Virus genome (UHGV): UHGV-1355336
DNA: 35,822 bases
Reading direction: 5' to 3' (one strand)
Origin: a virus
The notes under the pieces are model-generated. The model was not told where the DNA came from. It worked only from the letters and a program-made list of their open reading frames with translations, and ran no database searches. Both the position numbers and the translations under genes were made by a program. Below are positions 18,872 through 22,484 of the stretch, piece by piece (position 1 is the stretch's first letter; each line of letters opens with the position of its first letter).

Positions 18872-18888
18872 TGCTACTAAAAGTAGCA
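18872..18888. promoter_or_regulatory. Candidate left operator (OL-type) 17-bp palindrome TGCTACTAAAAGTAGCA
   Basis: Perfect 7-bp arms; near-identical to a 17-mer in the cI-cro intergenic region; flanked by AT-rich promoter-like DNA. Confidence 0.4.
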
Positions 18889-19121
18889 AAAATCAACAAC
18901 AAAAAGTAGAAGCGTGTATTTAATTTTTAGTTTTCTATATAACGTTATGAATTAAAAGGTTTTTCACAGATGGGGTGATGTGGCGTAGTTACGTATAGAA
19001 AATATCGAGTGTCTTTTGTTTTGGTTTAATTATTAGGTTAATTAGATAGTAATAATTTGGGGGAAAATAGTGGGAACTATGGATACAACGGGTCAGGAAC
19101 AGTGTTATTAAGCAGGCTACG

Positions 19122-19148
19122 AGTATAAAACCCGACCGGTTGGTCGGG
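19122..19148 (-). terminator. Rho-independent terminator ending the cI-ATPase (immunity) transcript
   Basis: On the - strand: GCCCGACC-AACC-GGTCGGG followed by TTTTAT, 37 nt past the ATPase stop. Confidence 0.5.
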
Positions 19149-19781
19149 CGAGAATTATGTTCGTTCTAAATCATGGTTATTGTATTACAGACACTTGACT
19201 ACTGTTGAAACATCAGATTCTAGTGCTTCAATTTGTGCTCTATTAGCTTGGGTCGCCATACCATAGATAGTGTAACTCTTATGCTGCAGCCTACTTAAAG
19301 GGCATCCCTCATGGTTTATTATTGCTGCAAGAGTATTACCATCTTTGACATTTTGAACTCTCTCGAAAGTAGCCACATTTGTGAACAGATGAGGATGTGT
19401 ATTTAACAGGTCATCCGTGATTCTTTTGATCTCTTCTGCATGTGATTTGAATGCTTTTGCTGCATCACTTTCATTAGTTCTTGAGCGGTTTTGTACGAAA
19501 AGGTGTAGTTCAGGTAGTTCGATAAGGTTTTGCTTTGCTTCTTTGTTGAAATCTAAGAACATTTCATCTTGTTCTGACTTGTCAATAGACACTCCATAAA
19601 TAAGTTTAACAAGGTTTTTTATTCCGCGAATTGATGCAGCATCGGCAGTGCAAGGGATAATTATTCTATTTGCCGCGACTACTCCCAATTCTGTGTAGCT
19701 GGCAAAACTTGGATTACAATCAATAAAAAATGTTTTTGCTCTGTCAGAAATGTTTTTATCGGCTTCAAAAGATGCTATTAG

Positions 19782-20976
19782 GGAAGGTGCGAACAAGTTC
19801 CTGATATGAGATCATCATATTCATCCGGAGCGCATCCCAGAGGGACATCATGAGCCATCAACTCACCTTCGCCGATAGTGAATTCAGCACTAAGCGCCGT
19901 CAGACCCGAAAAGAGATTTTCCTCTCCCGCATGGAGCAGATTCTGCCATGGCAGAATATGACCGCTGTCATCGAGCCGTTTTATCCCAAGGCGGGCAATG
20001 GCCGACGGCCCTATCCGCTGGAGACCATGCTGCGTATTCACTGCATGCAGCATTGGTACAACCTGAGCGACGGTGCCATGGAAGATGCCCTGTACGAAAT
20101 CGCCTCCATGCGCCTGTTTGCCCGATTATCCCTGGATAGCGCCCTGCCGGATCGCACCACCATCATGAATTTCCGCCACCTGCTCGAGCAGCATCAACTG
20201 GCCCGTCAATTGTTCAAGACCATCAATCGCTGGCTGGCCGAAGCAGGCGTCATGATGACCCAAGGCACTTTGGTGGATGCCACCATCATTGAGGCACCCA
20301 GCTCTACCAAGAACAAAGAGCAGCAACGCGATCCGGAGATGCATCAGACCAAGAAAGGCAATCAGTGGCACTTTGGCATGAAGGCCCACATTGGTGTCGA
20401 TGCCAAGAGTGGCCTGACCCACAGCCTAGTCACCACCGCGGCCAACGAGCATGACCTCAATCAGCTGGGTAATCTGCTTCATGGTGAGGAGCAATTTGTC
20501 TCAGCCGATGCCGGCTACCAAGGAGCGCCACAGCGCGAGGAGCTGGCCGAGGTGGATGTGGACTGGCTGATCGCCGAGCGTCCCGGCAAGGTAAAAACCT
20601 TGAAGCAGCATCCGCGCAAGAACAAAACGGCCATCAACATCGAATACATGAAAGCCAGCATCCGTGCCAGGGTGGAGCACCCGTTTCGCATCATCAAGCG
20701 GCAGTTCGGCTTCGTGAAAGCCAGATACAAGGGGCTGCTGAAAAACGATAACCAACTGGCGATGTTATTCACCCTGGCCAACCTGTTTCGGGTGGACCAA
20801 ATGATACGTCAGGGGAGAGATCTCAGTAAAAACCGGAAATAACGCCAGAAATGGTGGAAAAAATAGCCTAAATAGGCTGATTCGATGTGTTTGCGGGAAA
20901 AAAATCGGCCCAGATCCGCGAAATTTTAATCAGCGAGTCTGCTTGGGAAGAAATGACCTGCTTATTCGCACCTTCC
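19782..20976 (+). mobile_element. IS5-family insertion sequence, 1195 bp, 16-bp terminal inverted repeats, 4-bp TTAG target-site duplication
   Basis: IRL GGAAGGTGCGAACAAG at 19782; IRR CTTATTCGCACCTTCC ending 20976; TTAG at 19778-19781 and 20977-20980. Confidence 0.9.
19850..20842 (+). CDS. IS5-family DDE transposase
   Basis: 330 aa, [37 protein letters not shown]...; very close to recalled InsH except at the C-terminus. Confidence 0.9.
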
Positions 20977-21703
20977 TTAGATCTACCAGCAAAGATCGGC
21001 TTTTCTTCCATGCTTCTTTTACTGGGGATGAGCCAATGTGAGATATTAAGCGTGAACAGATATCAAGATCGACATCACCAGGAAGAATATATAAGTTCTC
21101 TGGCATTTTTGTATTAACATCATGGGCTCGTACAAAGTAAGAAGATTCATTTCCTAAACGAGACAAAGGAGATTTGCTAAAACGCTCCTTGATATAACCT
21201 GCGATTGTAACATTTCTGTCTCGCAATTTATTTAGATTTTCTTCCCCGGTACCATTGCCACCAAGAATAATTTCTGAAACGTTTGATTGAGGGCATGAGT
21301 CAATAACCACAACATCTTGATCCGGATGAGATATAGCAAACTCAACGGCAAGATTATATGTAAGAAAAGTTTTTCCTACACCACCTTTGTTGTTCCATAC
21401 TAAATATTTTGTATTGGTGGAAATCATATCTGCTACCCCATCTGTCGCTTCAGTACGTTCATTAATCATTATCGTATCCTGTTGTATAGAATTGTCTATT
21501 ATTTATGTTTTATTTTGGTTTTTTTTGTGTTAGTAACGCACCCAAAGATAACATATGGTCTTTATCTTTTCTTACTTAGGGTAACAGCTCAGTGTTAATC
21601 CATTTTTATGGACCAATGTGCCAAATAAAATTTGTATAAAGATTTTCTATCCTTATCTTTTATCATCTGTGCTCGTTTGCTTTAACGATTGCTAGATGCC
21701 TAA

Positions 21704-22444
21704 TTAAAGTCGATTATATTTAATCGACTCATGAATCAGTGCCTTACCCATAACATAAAGCTGATCTTGCGACTTCTCATCAATGTACCATTTCTCATAG
21801 GCGGGGTTATCCGAAAGAACAGCTAGTTTGTTGCCTTGCATTTGTAGACGTTTAACATGGAAAGTCTTACCGTAAACGAAAGAGTAAACTCCATCAGTCT
21901 GGAAGTGGCGAACGGAAATGTCGACAAACAATCGATCCCCGGAAACAAGAGTTGGGGACATACTATCTCCATTTACCGTCATAACTTTTATATCATTCTG
22001 AGAACGGTTTCCGAAAAGAGAACGGGCATGTTCAGTTGTGAACTCAATGGCGTAGAGCACATCAACATAGTCTGAAAGCATATAGGTCCCAGGTCCTGCG
22101 CTAACGCTAAGATCCAAAACTTCTATCCTGTATACATCGGGCTTTGTTGGATTGGGGATGCTTGCCATTTCCTTACATTCCTCTCTATCTCCAACACCAT
22201 ATTCTAGATATGAAGCTGATACTCCAAGAGCCAACGCAAGTTTACTCATGACAGAGACACGTGGCTTCGCTGCGCCGATTGTGTATCGACGAGCCATTTC
22301 ATATGTAACGCCCACAAGACTTTTGAGTTGAGTGACAGAGATTCCTTTGATTGTCATCAATTCGTTTAGTCTCTTGGCGAAATCTGGATACTTCTGTTCT
22401 TCTACCATAGGTAGAAGATTACTCACATCACACGCGCTAGTCAT
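21704..22444 (-). CDS. CI-like prophage repressor (HTH plus S24 LexA-type autopeptidase domain); start codon uncertain (22444 or 22408)
   Basis: C-terminal VNGDSMSPTL...K motif pattern of S24 peptidases; N-terminal HTH; divergent to a cro-like gene; no SD before candidate ATGs. Confidence 0.75.
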   Translation of the reverse strand: MTSACDVSNLLPMVEEQKYPDFAKRLNELMTIKGISVTQLKSLVGVTYEMARRYTIGAAKPRVSVMSKLALALGVSASYLEYGVGDREECKEMASIPNPTKPDVYRIEVLDLSVSAGPGTYMLSDYVDVLYAIEFTTEHARSLFGNRSQNDIKVMTVNGDSMSPTLVSGDRLFVDISVRHFQTDGVYSFVYGKTFHVKRLQMQGNKLAVLSDNPAYEKWYIDEKSQDQLYVMGKALIHESIKYNRL

Positions 22445-22446
22445 TT

Positions 22447-22484
22447 CTATTTTAAGTAGTTGCAATTTGCTATTTTAAGTAGCA
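22447..22484. promoter_or_regulatory. Right operator region: two copies of CTATTTTAAGTAG spaced 23 bp; second sits in 17-mer TGCTATTTTAAGTAGCA
   Basis: Direct reading of the cI-cro intergenic region; 17-mer matches the OL candidate at 14 of 17 positions. Confidence 0.5.

Follow-up and report, generated by a model that had tools for sequence, protein, structure and literature searches.

We analysed a stretch of 35,822 nucleotides, the virus genome UHGV-1355336 (hereafter the window), which carries an E. coli lambdoid prophage with an intD-type integrase and SfV/CPS-53-like early-left genes (yfdP, yfdQ, yfdR and yfdT). Our results suggest that a set of matching palindromes in its immunity region, which is 100% identical in E. 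coli 789 and in many other strains, are very probably the binding sites for the CI-type repressor of the prophage. We consider it highly likely that two of them, the 17-mers at 18872-18888 and 22468-22484, are OL1 and OR1, the strongest left (OL) and right (OR) operators of a genetic switch of the lambda/HK022 style. The position of these sites, the edges of the immunity module, their conservation, their co-occurrence with cI and the parallels in phages HK022 and HK639 all support this reading, which was reached by sequence comparison.

The predicted operator sites form a set of five

The sequence-only reading that preceded this work had paired the 17-mer TGCTACTAAAAGTAGCA at 18872-18888 with TGCTATTTTAAGTAGCA at 22468-22484, had noted a further copy in OR, and had proposed that these palindromes are operators. 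The three sites are real. The coordinates of both 17-mers were verified in the sequence, the two agree at 14 of 17 positions as written, with identical TGCTA/TAGCA arms, and CTATTTTAAGTAG is present both at 22447-22459 and at 22470-22482, an offset of 23 bp. On the minus strand the OL site reads TGCTACTTTTAGTAGCA, and 15 of its 17 positions are those of the OR site. The set, however, is larger than was reported, and includes two additional sites, OL2 and OR3. The conserved operator core is CTAC-N5-GTAG, extended in the strong sites to TGCTAC-N5-GTAGCA, and the consensus 17-mer from a symmetrised weight matrix is TGCTACTTAAAGTAGCA. The five sites, with their scores in this matrix and their relation to the predicted leftward (PL) and rightward (PR) early promoters and to the predicted repressor maintenance promoter (PRM), are as follows.

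18872-18888, OL1: TGCTACTAAAAGTAGCA; occupies most of the 17-bp PL spacer and overlaps the PL -10 by 2 bp; 24.5 bits, the top site of the window
18895-18911, OL2: AACAACAAAAAGTAGAA; core CAAC-N5-GTAG at 18897-18909, with one weak half-site; overlaps the PL -35 by 2 bp; 15.7 bits
22400-22416, OR3: TTCTACCATAGGTAGAA; core CTAC-N5-GTAG, CTACCATAGGTAG, at 22402-22414; 18.6 bits
22445-22461, OR2: TTCTATTTTAAGTAGTT; abuts the PRM -35 and overlaps the PR -35 by 2 bp; 19.5 bits
22468-22484, OR1: TGCTATTTTAAGTAGCA; lies in the PR spacer and overlaps the PR -10 by 2 bp; 23.2 bits

Measured from centre to centre, OL1 and OL2 are 23 bp apart, as are OR1 and OR2, and OR2 and OR3 are separated by 45 bp. OR3, a site that the earlier reading did not contain, is centred at 22408, where the cI start codon has its A.

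The sequence-only reading had itself proposed a motif search of the element and of related prophages, and had counted a random frequency of the motif elsewhere in the genome as evidence against operators. In the whole window, the pattern CTAYN5RTAG had 5 matches compared to 0.97 expected, and none of 100 shuffled sequences reached 5. Four of the five matches are inside the two regulatory regions, OR3 among them, and OL2 emerges only when one mismatch is allowed. With this looser pattern (CTACN5GTAG with at most one mismatch, whole window) 9 matches were obtained and 6.4 were expected, which is no enrichment, and the four loose matches outside the regulatory regions are consistent with chance. 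In the weight-matrix scan of the 35.8 kb the five sites scored 15.7 to 24.5 bits and the next best sequence 7.3 bits, a separation that is partly circular since the matrix was built from these five sites and their orthologues. The full site set is not due to chance.

The sites are conserved and travel with the repressor gene

The cI-cro region was found at 209 places in 206 of 5426 complete E. coli genomes (~3.8%), with a cI-cro identity of at least 99% in 71 of the 206, of 90-95% in 133 and of 80-90% in the remaining 2. A 54-bp island containing OL gave counts equal to these, 206 genomes and 209 places. We then aligned diverged examples, those of IHE3034, CX12, TW14425 and TUM9812, whose cI-cro DNA is 84-94% identical to that of the window. 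All five sites were present at the same spacings in these four relatives, with the arms kept and the central N5 variable (for example TAAAA, TTAAA, CAAAA or TTGAG). The five-site spacing is kept across relatives with 84-100% identical cI-cro DNA, despite differing OL flanks and cargo. In the related loci L005-L008 the OL1 orthologues keep their arms and OR3 is invariant, while the OL2 core of L007 and L008 is a perfect CTAC-N5-GTAG. In the OL alignment, 32 of the 40 columns of a 40-bp island comprising OL2, the -35 and OL1 are invariant; the flanks, with 15 of 135 and 9 of 154 invariant columns, are unalignable.

The borders of this homology were also informative. The left breakpoint is at ~18841, and the DNA further left is common to 2947 genomes with other immunity types. 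To the right, similarity to other immunity types begins again at ~22783 in one lineage, and in most at ~23300-23320. Since the operators sit just inside both homology breakpoints, they lie at the edges of a classical immunity module. The equal genome counts, the conserved OL island and the breakpoints together indicate that in mosaic prophages the operators move along with cI.

These distributions bear on the possibility that a host factor, for example LexA or a nucleoid protein, and not a phage repressor, acts at the sites. Although the prophage is expected to be SOS-inducible and its DNA is AT-rich, the OL island is confined to the 206 genomes that carry this cI, CTAC-N5-GTAG differs from the LexA box CTGT-N8-ACAG, and the repressor has its own S24 autocleavage domain. 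We therefore give this explanation a next to negligible chance.

The shared unit is a mirrored, predicted promoter-operator cassette

The sequence-only reading had described the shared feature as a 17-bp motif. The 17-mers exist as described, but the unit that OL and OR share is longer than the 17-mer. In an unbiased repeat search of 18200-22900, the first-ranking repeat was a 44-nt inverted repeat with arms at 18868-18911 and 22445-22488, 80% complementary, which holds both of the reported 17-mers. Read on the outward-facing strands, the two arms align without gaps in the order O2, -35, O1 (inside a 17-bp spacer) and -10, and the 2-bp overlaps of O2 with the -35 and of O1 with the -10 recur in both.

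left unit, minus strand: O2 TTCTACTTTTTGTTGTT, -35 TTGATT, O1 TGCTACTTTTAGTAGCA, -10 CATCAT
right unit, plus strand: O2 TTCTATTTTAAGTAGTT, -35 TTGCAA, O1 TGCTATTTTAAGTAGCA, -10 CATCAT

We therefore interpret the shared feature as two mirror-image promoter-operator cassettes that correspond to the predicted PL and PR. The sites are on either side of the cI-like gene, at the places expected for a lambdoid OL and OR, and overlap -35/-10 pairs of sigma-70-like type that face outward, to yfdP on the left and to cro on the right. The promoters predicted from the sequence in the immunity region are:

18868-18896, minus strand, predicted PL: -35 TTGATT at 18896-18891, 17-bp spacer, -10 CATCAT at 18873-18868
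22460-22488, plus strand, predicted PR: -35 TTGCAA at 22460-22465, 17-bp spacer, -10 CATCAT at 22483-22488; points right into cro
22416-22444, minus strand, predicted PRM: -35 ATGACT at 22444-22439, 17-bp spacer, -10 TAATCT at 22421-22416

The predicted PL points left, towards a leader of ~600 nt followed by yfdP-yfdQ-yfdR, and each of its hexamers has only 4 of the 6 consensus positions. In the relatives, the TTG of the predicted PR -35 is kept and the -10 is either CATCAT or CATTAT. The assignment of PRM is uncertain. T1, A2 and T6 of its -10 and the GTCAT of its -35 are conserved in the relatives. Its predicted start is at ~22409/22408, and the cI mRNA would accordingly be leaderless or nearly so. 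AGTAAT was also considered as the PRM -10 and was dropped, since the relatives carry AGTAAC at this place, whereas TAATCT/TAACCT keeps T1, A2 and T6.

Another possibility could be that a promoter cassette was duplicated and that PL and PR are its diverged copies, which would account for all of the similarity and make the palindromes by-products of AT-rich promoter DNA, not sites bound by a protein. The similarity does span 44 nt and includes both promoter hexamers, and the null for the 17-mer pair alone gives p ~0.12. This view, however, does not account for the dyad symmetry of all five sites, including OR3, which lies outside the cassette, nor for the relatives that vary the central N5 and hold the arms, nor for the homologous repressors, which have site sets of the same geometry with different arms (see below). 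We consider a mere duplication very unlikely, and operators within two promoter cassettes remain the preferred reading.

Additional dyads were observed around these promoters. A perfect 8-1-8 palindrome, CCTCTGAA-T-TTCAGAGG, is located at 22491-22507, beginning 3 bp past the predicted PR -10 and reaching into the Shine-Dalgarno sequence (GAGGAG) of cro. The changes that it carries in the relatives preserve pairing: in L006 an A-U pair becomes G-C and a G-C pair becomes G-U, and L007 has one G-U pair. This hints that the palindrome acts as a hairpin in the 5' RNA and is not bound by protein; it folds with -10 kcal/mol, but with a z-score of only -1.3. A second perfect 8-1-8 palindrome, AACAACAG-T-CTGTTGTT, lies at 18841-18857, shortly after the predicted start of PL and at the place (~18841) from which prophages of other immunity types are homologous; it is not conserved in L005-L008. 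A candidate LexA box near OL, CTGTTGTTTGTTCAG at 18850-18864, does not fit CTGT-N8-ACAG and was rejected.

The leader between PL and yfdP, which is apparently non-coding, contains an inverted repeat at 18301-18389 with 25-nt arms, 84% complementary, and a 39-nt loop. Its DNA (18253-18841) is 95-99% identical in thousands of E. coli genomes of other immunity types, and in some strains the Prokaryotic Genome Annotation Pipeline (PGAP) marks a frameshifted hypothetical gene in it. An Rfam scan of the whole window gave no match in the immunity region, the put-like RNA family included.

Related repressors have sites of the same layout with different arms

The nearest phage repressors are the cI products of HK639 (58% identity) and HK022 (43-44%), and no phage record in the searched collection has a repressor more than 60% identical. 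In both comparisons it is the N-terminal domain that diverges; the C-terminal domain is almost identical. The HK022 repressor (X16093; Oberto et al. 1989; Carlson & Little 1993) is homologous to the window CI over its full length, and the potential repressor sites annotated in its record are TGAAC-N5-GTTCA 15-mers. The AC-N5-GT geometry is shared with the window, and in both operators the C/G is 3 bases and the A/T 4 bases from the centre. Adjacent sites are 23-24 bp apart in both. In HK022, the cI ATG has its A at the centre of OR3, a register that window OR3 shares with it and with the sites of the related loci L009, L010 and L019. The annotated pL of HK022 (OL2, TTTACA, a 17-bp spacer containing OL1, and CATCAT) has the same build as the predicted window PL. 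Thus, AC-N5-GT dyads and an OR3 over the cI start codon, two marks of HK022-like architecture, are both found in the window.

The predicted specificity, by contrast, is different. The arms are CTAC/GTAG in the window and GAAC/GTTC in HK022, and the recognition helices are TYEMARRYTIG in the window CI and TPKAISKWFNG in HK022 CI; therefore, the window prophage and HK022 are predicted to be heteroimmune. Having neither the same operator nor a matching DNA-binding domain, this prophage is a relative of the HK022 immunity type and not a member of it. The layout of PR also differs: HK022 has its OR1 past the -10 and its OR2 within the spacer, and in the window, where PR mirrors PL, OR1 occupies the spacer and OR2 is upstream of the -35. 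For HK022, an OL3 at ~53 bp from OL2 and another operator, ~300 bp from OR on its downstream side, have been described (PMC8053113), whereas the weight-matrix scan of the whole window found no counterpart of either. The native OL-OR distance is ~2.4 kb in the window and ~700 bp in HK022 (PMC8053113). Unlike HK022, the window has a Cro that is a YdaS-type helix-turn-helix (HTH) protein, as well as ParA-type cargo between cI and OL.

HK639 (HM208537) carries the closest repressor from an isolated phage. Reading its sequence, we found three dyad-symmetric sites between cI and cro and further copies at the annotated putative pL. These are ATAAC-N4-GTTAT 14-mers, of even length and with a regular spacing of ~24 bp; their arms differ from those of the window, and the N-terminal domain of HK639 cI diverges from that of the window CI.

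We extended the comparison to the wider family, 33 loci with cI relatives in representative genomes, 29 of which were analysed with an automated palindrome-family finder run with fixed settings at each locus. The finder recovered the three OR sites of the window and analogous sets at other loci. The arms follow the type of recognition helix (GAAC, ATAAC, ATAGC, ATCGC, TAAC or TGCG), and CTAC arms were found solely in the window, whose type of N-terminal domain occurs at none of the 29 loci. This tracking argues for the proposal of the sequence-only reading that the motif would define the immunity specificity of the CI-like repressor.

The resemblance to lambda is one of organisation. As in lambda, 17-bp partly symmetric operators lie over divergent early promoters, an S24-type repressor is encoded between these promoters, accessory cargo occurs downstream of cI (the rexAB position), OL and OR are ~2.4 kb apart, and the cI mRNA, leaderless in lambda, is predicted to be so here. 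The differences are that the operators have no detectable sequence relationship, that two OL sites were found in the window and lambda has OL1-3, that window OR3 covers the start codon and transcription start rather than the PRM -35/-10, and that the window Cro belongs to a different family.

Which protein is likely to bind the sites

Several observations weigh against the sites being CI operators. Taken by itself, the 17-mer pair carries little weight: of 300 windows simulated with a first-order Markov model, 12% held one or more pairs of 17-mers whose perfect 5-bp arms were identical and whose centres agreed at 4 or more of 7 positions. What carries the case is therefore the complete set of sites, together with where they lie and how well they are conserved. 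One OL2 half-site is degenerate (CAAC), and the window has only two OL sites, with no third OL site and no distal operator above 7.3 bits in the whole-window weight-matrix scan. PL and PR each have only 8 of 12 consensus positions and were missed by a generic promoter scan, which gave instead an alternative leftward promoter, TTAAAA-18-TAAAAT, at 22478-22449 inside OR1/OR2; it was not taken for PRM, since CI occupying OR1/OR2 would then shut off the very promoter that maintains its synthesis. The literature searched yielded no binding, footprint, reporter or transcript results for this repressor. Finally, cI, cro and the operators are always co-inherited, and comparative data therefore cannot tell which of the proteins binds.

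This last point leaves room for the view that the sites serve only the Cro-like YdaS-type protein, or another phage HTH protein, with CI acting at other places or by other contacts. The gene beside OR does encode a Cro-like HTH protein, and since the immunity module is inherited as a block, co-occurrence does not separate the two. Other observations weigh against this view. PMC8053113, citing Carlson & Little 1993, reports that HK022 CI binds its operators cooperatively and that OL and OR are looped, and the annotated HK022 sites are laid out equivalently to those of the window. Across the 29 loci, a different cI N-terminal domain goes with different operator arms, and CI autoregulation would make sense of an OR3 centred at the cI start codon. 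In characterised lambdoid switches, moreover, CI and Cro share operator sites. We regard exclusive use of the sites by Cro or another HTH protein as improbable.

We also considered a division of targets, in which CI would bind the five CTAC-N5-GTAG sites and the YdaS-type Cro the palindrome at 22491-22507, which covers both the ribosome-binding site of cro and the predicted start of PR. The second 8-1-8 palindrome lies just downstream of PL (18841-18857). If true, this would depart from the shared-operator logic of lambda, 434, P22 and HK022; we give it only a small chance.

Proposed mechanism of the switch

With CI as the protein that very probably binds these sites, the following mechanism can be proposed. 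Dimers of the 234-aa CI would recognise the CTAC-N5-GTAG cores. One dimer at O1, in the spacer between -35 and -10, and another at O2, 23 bp away at the upstream edge of the -35, would shut PL and PR, probably cooperatively. This would block leftward transcription toward yfdP and beyond, and rightward transcription toward cro, the ymfL/cII-like gene and the replication genes. CI at OR2, which abuts the -35 of a weak leftward promoter, the predicted PRM, could stimulate its own synthesis, and at high CI levels occupation of OR3, over the cI start codon and the predicted start, would turn PRM down, possibly aided by OL-OR looping. By analogy with HK022, both cooperative binding and looping are plausible. 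During the SOS response, activated RecA would trigger self-cleavage of CI at Ala104-Gly105 and thereby free PL and PR. In the lytic direction, the Cro-like protein probably acts through these sites as well.

The kind of system is textbook, a lambda-style switch, and our understanding of lambdoid switches is not changed by it. Its DNA specificity, on the other hand, appears undescribed: a single literature search, confined to HK022 and HK639, returned no description of this immunity type, and a full-text literature search for the operator sequences returned only irrelevant matches. The operator set and the promoter map are concrete and testable proposals for an immunity type present in ~3.8% of complete E. 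coli genomes. They can be used to predict homo- and heteroimmunity among E. coli prophages of this type and to annotate early promoters, and possibly as another orthogonal repressor/operator pair for circuit design. Among the HK022 cI relatives, the site layout stays constant and the operator arms differ according to the type of N-terminal domain.

Genes of the immunity region

The cI (start 22408, minus strand) and cro (start 22515, plus strand) genes are divergent and separated by 106 bp. The features of the region outside the operators and promoters are:

19130-19149, minus strand: terminator-like hairpin and T run, 36 nt past the ParA stop codon
19185-21469, minus strand: ParA-family ATPase cargo gene between cI and OL, 361 aa when intact, here split by IS5
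19782-20976, plus strand: IS5, 1195 bp, with the TTAG target-site duplication at 19778-19781 and 20977-20980
21704-22408, minus strand: cI-like repressor, 234 aa, N-terminal HTH and C-terminal S24 autopeptidase
22515-22778, plus strand: Cro-like gene, 87 aa, YdaS-type HTH
22807-23391, plus strand: YmfL/CII-like gene, downstream of cro

CI contains the Pfam domains HTH_3 (E 1.7e-5, residues 21-68) and Peptidase_S24 (E 1.9e-16) and matches phrog_4, transcriptional repressor, with E 6e-49. A PDB sequence search with CI gave no match at E up to 0.01. Ala104-Gly105, Ser149 (in GDSM) and Lys186 (in VKRL) are invariant in the alignment with HK022 and HK639 cI, which points to a LexA-like autopeptidase at the C-terminus, with an Ala-Gly cleavage site and a Ser/Lys dyad, and to cleavage as its predicted activity.

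The ParA-family gene is inactivated by IS5 here and is intact in E. coli 789 (L001, 7186-8271) and in many other strains. The distance between OL and OR is ~3.6 kb in the window and ~2.4 kb without IS5. The cI-side (lysogenic) transcription unit probably ends at the hairpin at 19130-19149, upstream of PL. The slot from cI to OL, whose position corresponds to that of rexAB in lambda, varies in its cargo by lineage, holding either the ParA-family ATPase or two small overlapping open reading frames (115 and 126 aa; L006-L008, ~4279-4978). A PADLOC scan of the cargo proteins gave only marginal matches, with E above 1e-4.

Other features of the window

To the left of the integrase (14288-15451), in the part of the window from 1 to 15451, there are tail and tail-fibre genes and then an ompT/alpha-beta-hydrolase segment. 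The tRNA-Arg/fimZ junction that lies beside this prophage in E. coli 789 is absent to the left of the window integrase, and the window has no tRNA gene. None of the complete E. coli genomes in the collection covers at least 80% of 9000-21500. The arrangement of the window therefore looks composite or rearranged. Positions 25980-26079, in the early-right region of the prophage, consist of 100 N and mark an assembly or scaffold gap. Finally, the Rfam scan gave two matches above the gathering score, IS009 at 9671-9869 (213.9 bits), in the tail-fibre assembly region, and the small RNA STnc100 at 31344-31532 (114.5 bits), in the late region.

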